Positions 1-6,167 of a stretch of DNA of 14,809 bases are shown piece after piece; position 1 is the first letter of the stretch; the number at the start of each line of letters is the position of its first letter. A model generated the notes under the pieces. The model made no database searches. It was not told the DNA's origin and saw only the letters and a list, made by a program, of their open reading frames with translations. This stretch comes from Armatimonadota bacterium (GTDB taxonomy: Bacteria; Armatimonadota; Zipacnadia; Zipacnadales; UBA5352): contig JAYENL010000028.1 of NCBI GenBank assembly GCA_034722055.1, forward strand, positions 1-14,809. The letters are read 5' to 3'. The position numbers and the translations under genes were made by a program.

Positions 1-223
1 GAAACCGCCCTGCGGGGCGGGATGAAGCGGCGGATAGCTTCCGGCGCGGCTCGACCGTGCCGGAACACCATAAAAAGCCGCAAAATGATGATAAAACTCC
101 GCCGAAAAGGCGGAGCGGAGGGTTACATCGTGATGTGGAGAAGCTCCTGTCCCTGCCCTGCGGCGGAAAAGAGAGACGTCAGATCCCGCCCCACGGCAGC
201 AGACGCCCATTCTTCAGCAGTCA
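1..223. mobile_element. Hairpin-rich non-coding DNA abutting the truncated prepilin; probable end of an inserted element, continuing past the left edge
   Basis: No credible ORF. Stems at 5-20, 39-65 (11 bp with one G-T), 97-115 and 125-136, plus a 10-bp inverted repeat 14-23/183-192. Abrupt junction with coding sequence at 223/224. Confidence 0.45.
82..115 (-). terminator. Intrinsic terminator-like hairpin downstream of the prepilin fragment
   Basis: Minus strand reads CTCCGCC-TTTTC-GGCGGAG (7-bp GC-rich stem) followed by TTTTATCATCATTTT. Confidence 0.6.
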
Positions 224-274
224 GATGATCGCGATCACCACCAGCAGTTCGATCAGCGTGAAGCCACGTCGCAT
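221..274 (-). pseudogene. Prepilin-type N-terminal cleavage/methylation (type IV pilin-like, DUF1559-type) gene 5' fragment, 17 aa MRRGFTLIELLVVIAII then TGA
   Basis: Textbook class III signal G|FTLIE with E+5. RBS GAAGGAGG (GGAGG 8 nt before the ATG at 274). The usual continuation of the hydrophobic helix (e.g. AILAAILFPVF) is absent; a stop follows ATC ATC directly. Confidence 0.9.
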
Positions 275-361
275 CTCTACCGCCTCCTTCTCGCCCACTG
301 TAGGATCACCTATTGGAAGGATTCTTGAAGCCTCCCCACCCCTGGCACTCACCATCATCAT

Positions 362-388
362 ATTGTACCCCGCGTGGTGCGTTGTCAA
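362..388 (-). promoter_or_regulatory. Sigma70-type promoter for the prepilin gene
   Basis: Minus strand TTGACA (388-383), 15-nt spacer, TACAAT (367-362), in an AT-richer patch about 90 nt upstream of the ATG. The spacer is shorter than optimal. Confidence 0.6.
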
Positions 389-514
389 GGATATCGCGCA
401 TATTGGGCCGGAATTCGCTCCCCTTGCTGGCGCAGCGCATCCTCGCCCAAGCGGCGAGTCAATACCGATGCGCCCACGTAAGCCATGTTTCTGGGGTGAC
501 AGCGGCGCCACCGC

Positions 515-1819
515 TCACTGCTCCTGCGGCAGCAGCGACCGCTCCTCGAAGCGGTTCGTCCCCGGGTTGTACTCGTAGTACGCTAGCCATGTGTCCTTCG
601 CGATCCGCGTTGTCTGGGTCGTGGCCTCGTGATGGACCTCCGGGAGCGCGTCGAACACGAAGTCGCCGTCCAGCCGACCGGCGATCAGTATGGGGACCGG
701 CCGCTGCGCGTACTCGAAGCCCGGCTGCTGCTCCGGCTCCGGAGGCGCATGCTCCTTCACCCCGACGGGACCCTCCGGCACCGGGACGTACTCCCACCTC
801 TGCCCGTCCTCGGGTCGGCGGAACCACGCCGAGACCGCGGCGTAGTGGTTGTTGCGCAGCCTCAGCCGCCGGGCGCCCTGGACGACGATGCAGGCGTTGT
901 CGGAGAAGTCGTTGCGCCGCCACCCGTGGCCGTAGTAGCCCCAGAACAGGTTCGTGTCAATGGTCGTCTGCCAGGGCGTCCTGACGCCGATGTGGTTGCC
1001 GTTGGCCTCGAAGTAGCTTCCGGCGATGACGGTCTGAGCGCTATCCAGCAGCAGGATTCCATAGCCCTTGTTGGCCTCAAAGATGGAGCCGGAGATGTGC
1101 TGGCCATTGGAGGCCCACTGCCCCCGGTCGGGGCCGATCACCAGCCCGTGATGGTGATTGCGTCGGAAGGTGCAGTTGGTGATGCCGATGTTGTTCCCGT
1201 GGTTCTGGATGATCATCCCCACGTCATTGCCGCGGAAGAGGCATTCGGCGAAGAAGACCTGCCACGAGTGATTGATGTGCACGCCCACCTTCTGGCCCAG
1301 GAACCTGACGCTGCGGAAGGTGGTGTTCTTGGGCACCCGCTCCGACCAGGGCACCGAGACGCCCACGCCGCCGTGGCGCTGCTCGCGGTCGAAGGTCAGG
1401 CCCTCGATGGTGAAGCTGGCGCCCTCCCTGCCGCCGGGCCCCTGCACCACCATGATCGGCGGACCGTGCTCGGCCTCCTCCGGCTCGACGTCGCTCCACT
1501 CCTGCGCGTCCAGCGCCGCCGTTGCCAGCAGCGTCGCGCCGTAGCCCACCATGTGCAGGCCCCACTGGCCCGGACCGGTGCCCAGCCGAATGGTGCTGCT
1601 GACGCGATAGACCCCCGGTGGCAGCACGATGGTCCCGCCCGGCGACTCCTCCGACGAGAAGGAGTCGATGGCCGCCTGGATGGCCGGCGACCAGTCGCCC
1701 TCCTCGGCCAGCTCCGCGTAGTCCTGCACGTTCACGGCCACCTGCTGCGAAGGCGTCTCGCCATCCGCCATCCACTGCGCCGGCGGCAGCAGAAACGCTG
1801 TCACGATCGCCGCCATCAT
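515..1819 (-). CDS. Right-handed parallel beta-helix (pectate lyase-like) protein, probably exported, about 434 aa
   Basis: N-terminal motif VNVQDY...DWSPAIQAAID...GGTIVLPPGVYRVS typical of Pectate_lyase_3/GH28-like proteins; beta-helix repeats (CLFRGNDVGM, CTFRRNHHHGL, SIFEANKGYGI, SYFEANG). Start placed at MMAAIV downstream of GGGGAG; exact start uncertain. Confidence 0.8.
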   Translation of the reverse strand: MMAAIVTAFLLPPAQWMADGETPSQQVAVNVQDYAELAEEGDWSPAIQAAIDSFSSEESPGGTIVLPPGVYRVSSTIRLGTGPGQWGLHMVGYGATLLATAALDAQEWSDVEPEEAEHGPPIMVVQGPGGREGASFTIEGLTFDREQRHGGVGVSVPWSERVPKNTTFRSVRFLGQKVGVHINHSWQVFFAECLFRGNDVGMIIQNHGNNIGITNCTFRRNHHHGLVIGPDRGQWASNGQHISGSIFEANKGYGILLLDSAQTVIAGSYFEANGNHIGVRTPWQTTIDTNLFWGYYGHGWRRNDFSDNACIVVQGARRLRLRNNHYAAVSAWFRRPEDGQRWEYVPVPEGPVGVKEHAPPEPEQQPGFEYAQRPVPILIAGRLDGDFVFDALPEVHHEATTQTTRIAKDTWLAYYEYNPGTNRFEERSLLPQEQ

Positions 1820-2013
1820 GCTGTCATCGCTCTCCCCTGTGCGCGGTCTCACGTCGGCGTGGGGTATTCGTCGCCTGAGACGCTCAGGCCTTCTCAGTCG
1901 CCCGCCGCGTGACAGCACTACTCAGGTCAGCCTGCGTGCGCGGGAGGACCAGAGCGTCGGGCCGCCGAACTACCGCTCCGTGACGCAGCAGGCAGGGACC
2001 CAAGGAGCCTGGC

Positions 2014-4020
2014 ATGACTCGCGCGCAGAAGATGTTCTCCGAGGCTCTCATCGTCATCGGGCTGCTGGCCGCGGTCTGGATCGCGGTGGGACGGGTGATG
2101 GTGGAGCAGACCAACCTGACTGTGGGCATGGCCGTGGACTGGCAGGAGGTGGTGCGGCTCGCCGCCTCCGAGGGCGTCGGCCCCCGGGACGTGCTGGTGG
2201 CCCTCGAGTCCGCCGGCGCCACGCACCTGGCCGTGCCCGAGGAGGCACTCTCGGACCTCACCGAGCGCGGCGAGGTGGCGCTGTTTCGCCGCGGCGATGT
2301 GGATGTGGTCGAGGTCTATGGCGACGACGATGCGACGCTCCAGCGCGTGGCGCAGGCCCTCAAGGCCCGCTTCCCGGGCACATACCAGAAGACCACCATG
2401 CCGGACGGGGAAACCTGGCTGAGCGTGCCCGCTGCAGCGGTTTCGGTGCCCGACGCCGGGGTGGGCTATCCCCGCGCGGCGCTGGCGACGGCGAATGCCC
2501 TCGGGCTGAGGCTCGTGGTCCGGCCCAGGTGGCAGGGCGTGCGAACGCCGGCCGCGATCAGCCACGTTATGCAGGCCGCCGGCGACGCCCGCGCGGAGAT
2601 GGTGGTCTTCGACGGGGAGCAGGTGGTGGGCTTTCCGGAGCATGTGGATGTCACGGCACAGAAGATACGGCAGATGGGCCTGACCTTCGGGCTGATCGAG
2701 CTGGTGCCTCAGTTCGGCGCGAGCAGGCTGGCCATGCGTCTTCGCCATCAGCTCGTGCGCGTGCACAGCATCACGGAGCCGGAGATGCGGACCATCGGTC
2801 GGCGGCGCGCGGTGGAGCGCCTCGTGCGCGCCGCCCGGGAGCGGGGAGTCCGCCTGCTCTATGTGCGCATGCTGCCGGCATCCGACGCTGGCCTGCTGGA
2901 GGGGAATGCCGAGTATCTGCGCGATGTGCAATCGGGACTGCGCGCCGCCGGGCTCAAGACCGGCGTGCCGCGGCCGCACGCGCCCTTCTCGACCGCGCCC
3001 TGGCGCCTGGCGCTCGTGCAGCTTGGCGTAGTGGGCGCCGCCCTGTGGCTGCTGCAGGCCCTCTTCGGCCTGAAAGGCGGGCACTTCTGGCCGCTGGCGG
3101 CGGTGCTGATCGCCGGGGGCGCGGCGGCGATGTTCGTGGCCCAGGACCTGGGGCGCACGGTGGCGGCACTGGGCGCCGCCGTGCTCCTGCCCATCATCGC
3201 GGTGTGCTATGCGGGCCGGGCAGCCACCGCTCCGGCAGGGGGCAGGCCCGGCCTGCTGCGGGCGCTCCCGGAGGTGATCGGGGCCTTCCTGATTGTGTGT
3301 GCCGTAAGCGCCTTCGGCGGCCTGCTGGTGGTGGGCCTGCTCGGGGACACGACCTTCATGATCAAGGTGGCGCAGTTCAGGGGCGTGAAGGTCGCGCAGC
3401 TCCTCCCCATCCTGGTGGTGGCGCTGGTCTGGCGGGCGCGATCCACCGGGAGCTACCAGCGGGCGGTCTCGGAGGCCACGCCCGAGATGGTGGACTACCG
3501 CTCCGGCGAGACGGTGGCGGAGTGGCCGGCGCTGTGGCGGGGCCTCCGGGAGGCCTTCGCGAGCCTGGTGGCCTACTGGCACGTGGCGGCGGCCTTCGCC
3601 GCGCTGGTGCTGCTGGCGCTGCTGATGCTGCGCTCGGGGAATCAGCCCGAGGGAGCGGTGCTGCCCATGGAGCTGGAGATACGCTCCCTGCTCGACCGCC
3701 TGCTGGTTGTGCGCCCGCGCACCAAGGAGGTCTTTCTGGGCCACCCGGTGATGCTCCTGGGGCTGCTCCTGGCGCTGCGCGCCCAGCGGCGGGGGCTGTG
3801 GATCGCGCTGGCCGTGGGCACTATCGGACAGATCTCGCTGGTGAACTCCTTCTGTCACATTCACACGCCGCTACTGCTGACGCTGATGCGAGTGCTCAAC
3901 GGCATGTGGCTCGGGGCCGTCGGCGGCCTGGTGCTCTGCGCCGTCTGGGACGCTCTGGGCGGCGCGCCGCAGCCGGAGGCCGAGCCGGCCCCGCCCGAGC
4001 AGCCCGGCGATGAGCAATGA
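2014..4020 (+). CDS. DUF5693 family membrane protein, 668 aa
   Basis: N-terminal TM helix, large extracytoplasmic domain, multi-TM C-terminus with QFRGVK, RPRTKEVFLGHP and GQISLVNSFCHIHTP motifs. RBS AAGGAG. ATGA overlap with csaB, its usual neighbour. Confidence 0.85.
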   Translation: MTRAQKMFSEALIVIGLLAAVWIAVGRVMVEQTNLTVGMAVDWQEVVRLAASEGVGPRDVLVALESAGATHLAVPEEALSDLTERGEVALFRRGDVDVVEVYGDDDATLQRVAQALKARFPGTYQKTTMPDGETWLSVPAAAVSVPDAGVGYPRAALATANALGLRLVVRPRWQGVRTPAAISHVMQAAGDARAEMVVFDGEQVVGFPEHVDVTAQKIRQMGLTFGLIELVPQFGASRLAMRLRHQLVRVHSITEPEMRTIGRRRAVERLVRAARERGVRLLYVRMLPASDAGLLEGNAEYLRDVQSGLRAAGLKTGVPRPHAPFSTAPWRLALVQLGVVGAALWLLQALFGLKGGHFWPLAAVLIAGGAAAMFVAQDLGRTVAALGAAVLLPIIAVCYAGRAATAPAGGRPGLLRALPEVIGAFLIVCAVSAFGGLLVVGLLGDTTFMIKVAQFRGVKVAQLLPILVVALVWRARSTGSYQRAVSEATPEMVDYRSGETVAEWPALWRGLREAFASLVAYWHVAAAFAALVLLALLMLRSGNQPEGAVLPMELEIRSLLDRLLVVRPRTKEVFLGHPVMLLGLLLALRAQRRGLWIALAVGTIGQISLVNSFCHIHTPLLLTLMRVLNGMWLGAVGGLVLCAVWDALGGAPQPEAEPAPPEQPGDEQ

Positions 4021-5099
4021 GGATCGTCCTGTCCGGGTACTATGGCTTCGGCAACGCCGGCGATGAGGCTGTGCTCAGTGCCGCCGTCACCGAGCTCAGA
4101 CGGCGGCTGCCGGAGGCCGAGCTCGCGGCGCTGTCGGCCGACCCACGCGCGACCGAGGACGCCCACGGCGTGCGGGCGGCGCAACGCTGGCCGCCCGGGC
4201 CGCTCTGGCGCGCCATCGCCTCGGCGGACCTGATGCTCTCCGGCGGTGGGAGCCTCCTGCAGGACGCCACGAGCCTCCGGTCGCTGGGGTACTACCTGCT
4301 GACAATGGAGCTGGCCCGCCGCGCCGGCGTCCCCTACGCCATCCTCTCGCAGGGCCTGGGGCCGCTGCAGAGCTGGCTGGGGCGGCGGCTGGCAGGGCAC
4401 TACCTGCGCGGCGCCGGGGCCGTGACCGTGCGCGATCAGCAATCGGCGGACCTCGCGCGCACGCTCGGCGTCCCGGAGGCACTCATAACGGTGGGAGCGG
4501 ACCCGGGCCTGCTGCTCGAGCCCGCCAGCGCGGGCGAGGCCAGAGCGATCCTGCAGGAGGCCGGTGCGGAGGTCGGCCGACCGCTGACGGGCATCGTCAT
4601 GCGGGAGTGGCGTGGAGCCTACCAGGCGCTCCCAGCCCTTGCGGCTATCGGCCGCGCGGCGATCGAGCAGTGGCAGGCCGGGGTCGTGCTGCTGCCCTTC
4701 CAGGTGCCGGCGGACCTGGAGATCACGCATGAGCTGGCCTCGCTGCTACCGCACAGCGCGGTCGTCGCGGAGCCGCTGCACCCCAGGGCCTTGATGGCCG
4801 TGATCGGGCAGCTTGAGATGGTAGTGGCGATGCGCCTGCACGCGCTGGTGTTCGCGGCGGCCCAGGCTGTGCCGGCGCTGGGCGTGGCCTACGACCCGAA
4901 GGTGGCGGCGCTGTGCCGGGCGGCCGAGCAGGCTTGCGCGCCGCTGGAGGAGCGCCAGCGCCTCGCGGAGCTGGCGGAGGAGACCTGGCGGTCCCGCGAG
5001 AGCCAGGCGGAGGTGCGTCGGCGGCGGGCGGTGGAGCTGCGCCAGCGAGCGGCGCGCTGCTTCGACGTCATCGAGCGCCTCTGCCAGGAGCTGTCGTAG
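4017..5099 (+). CDS. csaB: Polysaccharide pyruvyl transferase CsaB
   Basis: SGYYGFGNAGDEA, SGGGSLLQDATSLRSLGYYL, QGLGP, VRD, MRLHAL and YDPKV motifs. Confidence 0.93.
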   Translation: MRIVLSGYYGFGNAGDEAVLSAAVTELRRRLPEAELAALSADPRATEDAHGVRAAQRWPPGPLWRAIASADLMLSGGGSLLQDATSLRSLGYYLLTMELARRAGVPYAILSQGLGPLQSWLGRRLAGHYLRGAGAVTVRDQQSADLARTLGVPEALITVGADPGLLLEPASAGEARAILQEAGAEVGRPLTGIVMREWRGAYQALPALAAIGRAAIEQWQAGVVLLPFQVPADLEITHELASLLPHSAVVAEPLHPRALMAVIGQLEMVVAMRLHALVFAAAQAVPALGVAYDPKVAALCRAAEQACAPLEERQRLAELAEETWRSRESQAEVRRRRAVELRQRAARCFDVIERLCQELS

Positions 5100-5396: not shown

Positions 5397-6167
5397 TCAG
5401 AGGTCAAACTCCGCCAGCAGGGGCGCGTGATCCGAGGGCTTCTCGGCGCGGCGGGGGGCCAGGTCGATCCAGCAGCGCGTGCTCAGCCTCGCCAGCGGCT
5501 TCGTGGCCATGGTGTGATCCACGCGCCAGCCGTGCCCCTTTTGCAGGGACTGCGTGTCGCGGTAGTCGTAGAAGGTGAACTGCCCGTCCTCGTCATTGTG
5601 CCGGCGGAAAACGTCCACGAAGCCCCACTCGGCGGTGTGCGCGAAGGCCGCCCGCGCATCCGGATGGAAGTCCGGGTGGTTCCCGAGGCGCTTCGGGGCG
5701 TAGACATCCCGCTCGGTGGGCGCCACGTTCATATCGCCGACCCACAGGATGCGCTTGCGCGGCGTCCACCTGCGTTCGAACAGATCCCGCAGCCGCCGCA
5801 GCCAGTCGAGCTTGTAGCGGAAGGCCTCGTCCTCGGGATCGCGTCCCTGCGGCACGTAGGTGTTGACCACCGGCAGCCGGCCGATCTGCACGATCAGCAG
5901 CCGCGAGGCGTCGCTGGGCTCCTCGTCGAAGCCCTGATCGGTCACCTCCATCTTCAGCCGGCTGGCGGTCGCCACGCCGTTGTACGACTTCTCGCCCGCA
6001 AAGGCGACCTCGTAGCCCATGGCCTCGAAGGGCTCGGCCGGGAAGTCCTCGTCCGCGACCTTCGTCTCCTGCATGCACAGCACGTCCGGCTCCTGGTCCT
6101 CCACGAAGGCCTCGACAACCGGGATACGAGCGCGGATGGAGTTGACGTTCCAGGTGGCGATGCGCAT
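5397..6167 (-). CDS. xth: Exodeoxyribonuclease III (AP endonuclease)
   Basis: MRIATWNVNSIRAR, DVLCMQETK, YNGVA, YVPQG, GDMNVAP, WRVDH and PSDHAP motifs; RBS GGAGG. Confidence 0.95.
   Translation of the reverse strand: MRIATWNVNSIRARIPVVEAFVEDQEPDVLCMQETKVADEDFPAEPFEAMGYEVAFAGEKSYNGVATASRLKMEVTDQGFDEEPSDASRLLIVQIGRLPVVNTYVPQGRDPEDEAFRYKLDWLRRLRDLFERRWTPRKRILWVGDMNVAPTERDVYAPKRLGNHPDFHPDARAAFAHTAEWGFVDVFRRHNDEDGQFTFYDYRDTQSLQKGHGWRVDHTMATKPLARLSTRCWIDLAPRRAEKPSDHAPLLAEFDL

Follow-up and report, generated by a model that had tools for sequence, protein, structure and literature searches.

We are highly confident that the first 224 bases of the window (the whole 14,809-nucleotide stretch analysed here, contig JAYENL010000028.1 of the Armatimonadota assembly GCA_034722055.1) are the right end of an IS1182-family insertion sequence (IS), inserted into a DUF1559-type prepilin gene at the codons for IAI-IAI with a 5-bp target-site duplication, and that its transposase likely reads a 17-bp palindrome at this site. 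Established by observation are the identity and ends of the element, the duplication, an empty orthologous site, insertion in both orientations, the in-frame stop codon, and the near-exclusive use of one site by a single transposase clade and its 106-140-bp miniatures. The IS1182 family is already known, and what is new here is a clade within it that targets prepilin genes to the exact codon, together with its miniature elements. Position 1 of the window is also the first base of contig C28 in a genome (G000) of 330 contigs, which leaves no sequence for an extension to the left, and the features at this edge are collected in Table 1.

Table 1. Features of the interrupted prepilin locus, in window coordinates.
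Feature	Position	Strand	Basis or remark
IS1182-family insertion sequence, right end, running off the contig start	1..224	+	98-99% identity to four other contig ends
Last 7 codons of the transposase (KPPCGAG) and TGA	2..25	+	Reading frame; same C-terminal residues in P0003
Putative terminator-like hairpin within the IS right end, oriented towards transcription coming from the prepilin side	96..116	-	
Right terminal inverted repeat CTGACTGCTGAAGAAT	209..224	-	Pairs with the left end CTGACTGCTGAAAAAG
5-bp target-site duplication ATCAT	225..229	-	Body of the orthologue on C106 begins with these five bases
Left arm and core of the palindromic target ATNGCNATNATNGCNAT, peptide IAI-IAI	225..235	-	
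5' half of prepilin gene, DUF1559 / H-X9-DG type, MRRG/FTLIELLVVIAI...	225..274	-	N_methyl, TIGR02532
Ribosome-binding site GAAGGAGG	283..290	-	8 nt upstream of ATG; retained in the G001 orthologue
Candidate promoter-like TTGACA-N15-TACAAT	362..388	-	Short spacing; -10 not conserved
Upstream host gene, right-handed beta-helix protein	515..1918	-	Pfam Beta_helix, E 7e-14

The interrupted gene and the inserted element

Read on the minus strand, the window carries GAAGGAGG at 290-283, an ATG at 274, the leader MRRG/FTLIELLVVIAII and a TGA at 223-221, and the leader matches both Pfam N_methyl (E 8e-8) and TIGR02532. An intact leader with a ribosome-binding site and an immediate stop codon had been described in the first-pass annotation, and this description is borne out at coordinates 290-221. 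The promoter reported with it is present as hexamers (TTGACA at 388-383, TACAAT at 367-362) but not in strength: the hexamers lie 15 nt apart, a sigma-70 scan of window positions 1-700 returned 0 sites, and the orthologue in G001, a genome of the same genus, retains TTGACA and reads TGCAAG at the -10 position. Judged by these signals, the candidate promoter of the window leader appears weak. Among 7 runs, no RNA data set was listed as containing the sequence, a result that bears on expression in neither direction. As for the nature of the target gene, an N-methyl motif, DUF1559 and a C-terminal H-X9-DG were all found when the leader was considered along with the orphan bodies on contigs C154 and C269, both of which match DUF1559, with that on C154 passing H-X9-DG. 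The intact G001 orthologue has HNDGANVGYCDG as its C-terminal end. A six-frame scan of the window genome detected 48 prepilin motifs, 5 of which end at exactly the residue where the window leader is broken.

Several additional features have been observed around these loci. The intergenic stretch upstream of the leader (413-550) occurs as two haplotypes, differing by 10 substitutions and 2 gaps, in the runs of one study. Further along the window, a DUF5693 gene (2014-4020, plus strand), a polysaccharide pyruvyl transferase gene (4017-5099, plus strand) and an exonuclease-III-like gene (5397-6167, minus strand) are ordinary and show no relation to the element. Elsewhere in the genome, a prepilin start is present twice around a run of N (G000:C95:30541-30768), probably a scaffolding artefact, and C18 and C143 carry 127 identical overlapping bases at another prepilin leader.

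The empty site is found in G001, where synteny extends through the upstream region (85% over 3.2 kb, anchored by an 88% identical orthologue of the beta-helix gene) and the prepilin gene is intact. The body of this G001 gene corresponds to contig C106 of the window genome (87.8% over 596 bp), on which the body opens with ATCATCGCC immediately following an element end. A pairing of the C28 leader with the C154 body, proposed from end type and core, was rejected, as synteny indicates C106. Comparison of the other eight gene halves with 38 G001 stretches gave one-sided orthologues only and no second pair. The junction itself lies at 225/224, with C224 as the first base of the element (miniature copies read G there); the leader is thus cut exactly by other DNA, as had been noted earlier, at a breakpoint of 225/224 rather than 224/223. 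Bases 2-4 of the inverted repeat (TGA, 223-221) constitute the stop in the prepilin frame. The duplication takes the form ATnAT and is 5 bp long, with identical repeats in 13 of 14 collinear complete IS copies. Across lineages, bases 2-4 of the element end read TGA, TAA or TAG, always a stop in the leader frame. This invariance may reflect selection against prepilin fusions, a hint to be read with the fact that the search patterns partly presuppose T-R-R.

The five broken leaders of the genome continue into one of two sequences, both containing CTGACTGCTGAA, and one of these (on C203 and C154) leads into an open reading frame (ORF) beginning MQHRPQ. The left end CTGACTGCTGAAAAAG is present on C203, C154, C230, C249 and C275. 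A full-length relative, P0003 (510 aa), is 99% identical to the N-terminal fragment on C203 and comprises the Pfam domains DUF772, DDE_Tnp_1 and DDE_Tnp_1_6. It passes the IS1182 model NF033551 (333 bits, cut-off 270) and narrowly also the IS5 model NF033581 (141 against a cut-off of 140), a test that was run on a protein from another assembly, linked to the window through the window tail and the 99% identity to C203. Its C-terminus, KPPCGAG, is the residues encoded by window 2-25, and because the window encodes these terminal residues, positions 1-224 are identified as an IS1182 right end lying antisense to the prepilin gene. The DNA downstream of the leader, described at first as foreign and structured, consists of a transposase tail, at bases 2-25, and the non-coding right end of an IS.

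The remaining transposase was not found assembled in G000, where copies of the element are assembled at their ends only, these ends being 98-100% identical among copies. Taken with the empty site in G001, this near-identity is at most an indirect hint of active transposition. Complete elements from 25 relatives measure 1,785-1,845 bp, with one long ORF and terminal inverted repeats of about 15-16 bp. IS1182 elements have a single ORF and a length of about 1.3-2 kb, and the family model, the size with a single ORF and the terminal inverted repeats all place the element among them. Residues D144, D324 and E455 are invariant across 31 transposase proteins and are predicted to be catalytic; a search for a solved structure related to the transposase found none. 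Read depth at the IS end exceeds that of the flank about 9-12x in two runs of one study (129.8 vs 10.7-15 and 438 vs 40-52), figures that sum all organisms and do not represent a copy number. One contig of a second study corresponds to window 1-226, apart from 8 differences. At another locus (L206 / L017, G034:C24) a truncated element has been detected, in which the left end and about 40 transposase codons are followed by a prepilin body, with no right end.

Target motif, site specificity and distribution

The target ATNGCNATNATNGCNAT is palindromic at all its fixed positions whatever wobble bases are used, because the dinucleotides that open Ile codons (AT) and Ala codons (GC) are each self-complementary and IAIIAI is the same in both directions. 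The 17-bp motif has 36 intact copies in the 6.1 Mb of G000, all within prepilin genes, and 41-150 intact copies per relative genome; the arms alone occur 147 times outside prepilin genes in G000. In this genome, 15 of 16 element ends, belonging to the IS and to a 106-bp miniature, are located at the same codon of prepilin/DUF1559 genes (9/10 IS ends, the exception being on C249, and 6/6 miniature ends). When ends were searched in five relatives without the target in the pattern, 80 of 82 genome-typical ends were on target, after removal of 12 of 94 raw matches that did not resemble the end typical of their genome (a reversed-pattern control returned 20). Prepilin-gene junctions were detected in 18 of the 67 genomes of the order, covering five of its seven families, with a reversed-pattern control of 0; outside the order, the same pattern found none in a class and phylum sample of 356 genomes. 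Insertions occur in both orientations and across many different paralogues.

A further set of 65 metagenome loci was found by protein alone, with 34 in a close clade (33 of them at least 42% identical across almost the whole length and one a partial match) and 31 more distant; several of the 65 are near-copies, and related genomes are not independent observations. A prepilin half is present at an end in 32 of the close-clade loci, the flanks of the other 2 being too short, and one locus has its second end off target. No prepilin motif was found at the 31 more distant loci. In a quick tree of 55 transposases, 32 prepilin-labelled rows fall on one side of a branch with an SH-aLRT of 100; six near-duplicates and the loci without a 330-aa frame were left out of this tree, and the labels of L063, L106 and L114 derive from short flanks. 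Element ends were not found for most outgroup rows of the tree, and in a set of 10 outgroup IS1182 loci an inverted repeat was detected in 2, one of which is doubtful. Close matches among named records comprise two assigned to Armatimonadota/Armatimonadetes and one to Chthonomonas, the latter a 1.8-kb contig consisting almost entirely of IS. Selection has filtered the sites seen today, and the true fidelity may be lower. In one relative (G016) insertions seem to favour the orientation antisense to the gene, and the ATGAT core occurs in 2 of 3 leaders at left ends. A literature search covering titles and abstract openings found no description of a prepilin-targeting IS.

Departures from the target have also been observed. 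At three off-target ends (L006:127, which is G000:C249, L108:2059 and L197:831) A-Y-n-G-Y is kept at -11 to -7 and the core is lost, the one on C249 lying close to the terminus of a long open frame. At L110, L121 and L198, the arm or core tolerates single changes. At L105 (G016:C180) the insertion precedes IIAIMAAALMPAVT; since this body differs from the usual IIAILAAILFP, the motif rather than the subfamily seems decisive.

The miniature found in G000 is 106 bp long with 16-bp inverted repeats, and its three copies occupy the same target site in both orientations. Being short and non-coding, with ends and target common to the IS, it qualifies as a miniature inverted-repeat transposable element (MITE), with ends that differ from the window IS end at two bases. 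Overall, 15 complete miniature insertions have been identified, 10 with an identical 5-bp duplication and 5 with non-identical cores, which perfect the flanking inverted repeat. All 15 are collinear, and miniatures are short enough to be spanned by single reads. The 106-bp miniature plus its duplication amounts to 37 codons and keeps the prepilin frame (L003, L005, L061, L090, L041), the first TGA being the sole stop in 4 of the 5 copies read; other miniatures, 108 or 140 bp in length, do not keep the frame.

With regard to mechanism, the transposase would form a complex of two-fold symmetry that binds to both arms (A-Y-n-G-Y at -11 to -7) and cleaves with a 5-bp stagger around the central ATnAT. 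The DNA address would be maintained through selection acting on the pilin helix, and dozens of paralogues likely make each knockout tolerable, such that the prepilin family could serve as a renewable safe haven. We infer that the palindrome is read by protein, which is likely because no conserved guide RNA was found. Two options had been offered in the first-pass annotation, a mobile element using the conserved motif as a landing pad and an excision or inversion switch, with checks suggested. The landing pad is the option that stood: a DDE transposase was identified, with its tail inside the window; orphan 3' halves exist in the genome as bodies beginning IIAILAAIL; and the breakpoint is common to 5 leaders of the genome, to other paralogues and to other genomes. 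The accompanying comparison with islands in tRNA genes is sound as far as a conserved motif serves as landing pad, and parts company at the DDE enzyme, the 5-bp target duplication and the broken gene. The switch was not upheld, considering that the element carries no recombinase, occurs in both orientations and in many paralogues, has junctions that are patchy across the order and shares its site with a non-coding miniature.

Mixed junctions and alternative explanations

The C28 leader and its orthologous C106 body both adjoin a right end, an arrangement that is not obtainable from one simple insertion, and that could have originated from a mixture of two strains that carry the element in opposite directions, from a flip in place or from an event involving two copies. 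The long-element contigs with one or both flanks readable number 26. They include 14 collinear cases, 6 of the leader-IS-leader type and 5 of the body-IS-body type; a further 5 contigs had a flank that was short or off target, and 1 was merged as a duplicate. Leader junctions read ATGAT in 12 of 56 cases and body junctions in 1 of 69, whereas intact genes read ATH at the same position in 41/41 (G000) and 37/37 (G001), never ATG. In 5 of these 12 junctions the adjoining position -6 carries a leader-type base, which confines the change to the core. The ATGAT core occurs in 5 of 6 leader-IS-leader contigs versus 0 of 14 collinear ones (Fisher p 0.0004, for loci that are related), and non-identical cores were detected in 1 of 14 collinear IS insertions. 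The mismatched cores might have arisen by carry-over of the donor core or by template-switch correction.

The two right ends flanking the halves of one gene, the leader-IS-leader and body-IS-body contigs, the enrichment of ATGAT in the former and its occurrence at leader junctions when every intact gene reads ATH together speak for an element that also rearranges prepilin loci, by two-copy or replicative events carrying the donor 5-bp core, with leaders and bodies of different paralogues becoming neighbours. We regard this as unlikely, at roughly one chance in a handful. Taking into account that all 15 read-length miniatures are collinear, the long-element pairings may be assembly chimeras; the two haplotypes at 413-550 mean that the right/right arrangement may come from two strains carrying the element in opposite directions; and the mismatched cores in every case complete the inverted repeat beside them, an outcome expected of template-switch correction. 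A bolder and somewhat more doubtful reading is that a lone DDE transposase reads the 17-bp palindrome with more than 95% fidelity, carries the donor core and re-pairs leader and body halves among dozens of paralogues, acting as a shuffler of the surface repertoire; under it, carry-over and re-pairing would arise since each donor flank already amounts to half a target. Improbable, in our judgement, is a weak specificity sharpened by selection, whereby the element inserts at many A-Y-n-G-Y...inverted sites and survives only in redundant prepilin paralogues. The three off-target ends that retain arms only are consistent with it, as is the fact that surviving insertions alone are visible, but the 147 arm-only sites outside prepilin genes are intact, when insertion into some of them should be neutral, and a single base position is used rather than positions spread over 600-bp paralogues.

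The remaining explanations carry far less weight than the insertion of a site-specific IS. A programmed excision or inversion switch of the shufflon or skin type, joining an expression site to a pilin body, would account for the intact leader and ribosome-binding site and for the same end type at both gene halves; it is very unlikely for an element that encodes a DDE transposase as its sole enzyme, produces a target duplication instead of an att core and uses many different leaders, with a simply intact orthologue in G001 and junctions in just 18 of 67 genomes of the order. Action at the RNA level, either intron-like removal or guidance by a bridge-RNA-like guide in the long right end, we consider just as remote. 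In relatives, 155-198 bp of the right end are non-coding, the right end in the window folds better than its shuffles (z -2.5), and the 106-bp miniature with its duplication makes 37 codons that are open besides the first stop in 4 of 5 copies. Nonetheless, no structure conserved across 25 right ends was found, these ends being 42% identical with no consensus pairs; Rfam gave no match in the window and four loci; half-target matches occur in 0/25 (ATNGCNAT) and 2/25 (the core-containing half) non-coding right ends; and the 108- and 140-bp miniatures are out of frame. Misassembly at the repeated motif is scarcely credible: the site does lie 224 bases from a contig end, and no listed sequence piece bridges the junction with 31 letters on each side, but the junction recurs in 18 genomes and many independent metagenomes, short miniatures span the site whole and the duplications match.

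Significance and relation to known systems

Simple DDE insertion sequences usually choose their targets loosely or by DNA structure. In the clade described here, which spans transposases as little as about 42% identical, a single base-exact address within a protein-coding motif is retained, and on account of this the clade is a compact candidate for understanding how a lone transposase reads a long target, possibly also for site-specific integration. It illustrates a route by which conservation at the protein level creates a landing pad in DNA. The insertions constitute natural knockouts of the large DUF1559 prepilin family, with at least 8 genes affected in G000 against 36 intact target sites, and the element accounts for assembly breaks at prepilin genes in these genomes.

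A conserved gene serves as a fixed address for Tn7 (attTn7, at glmS), tRNA islands, comM-targeting elements and the rDNA-specific R2 and Pokey, the last two of which also inactivate individual copies in a redundant multigene family. Tn7 depends on an additional targeting protein and leaves its target gene unharmed, and islands, which use recombinases, leave the gene restored. In contrast to Tn7, islands, R2 and Pokey, a single-ORF bacterial IS is involved here, acting within a protein-coding paralogue family; a DDE enzyme and a stop codon right after the junction set it apart from tRNA-type islands. It resembles shufflons, pilin invertases and skin-type elements in that a gene is interrupted or split and the expression site is intact, but the element has a transposase only, with no recombinase, uses many loci rather than a fixed single one and gives no sign of programmed rejoining. 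DDE domains and the fact that no conserved structured RNA was found likewise separate it from RNA-guided IS (IS110/IS1111) and group II introns.

Within the IS1182 family, the closest parallels are IS1272 and TnSha1 of staphylococci, for which the available parts of the reports describe insertion at terminator hairpins without primary-sequence specificity, part of the stem being deleted and no duplication made (PMC5678879; PMC4923244). A review cited in the former mentions, without detail, that some IS1182 members target palindromes (PMC5678879). Transposase family, terminal inverted repeats of about 16 bp and a palindromic target are thus shared with IS1272/TnSha1 as there described, whereas the prepilin clade uses one primary-sequence motif in coding DNA and duplicates 5 bp, the duplication being present in 13 of 14 collinear IS and 10 of 15 miniature insertions. 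ISPse1, an IS1182-family element from Paracoccus, has a comparable canonical anatomy (1,653 bp, 16/16 inverted repeats, 4-bp duplication), and the difference lies in the strict target site, which is not reported for ISPse1 in the sections available (PMC3281130). Another report, in the part at hand, has no bearing on targeting (10.1101/2024.06.02.596822). The use of a multicopy palindrome as a low-cost and highly selective landing pad has been described, in the available text, for the REP-targeting ISPa11, ISPpu9/10 and ISRm22 (PMC1525189). As presented there, REPs are extragenic, whereas the prepilin palindrome arises incidentally from a protein motif, and the gene is destroyed by each insertion.
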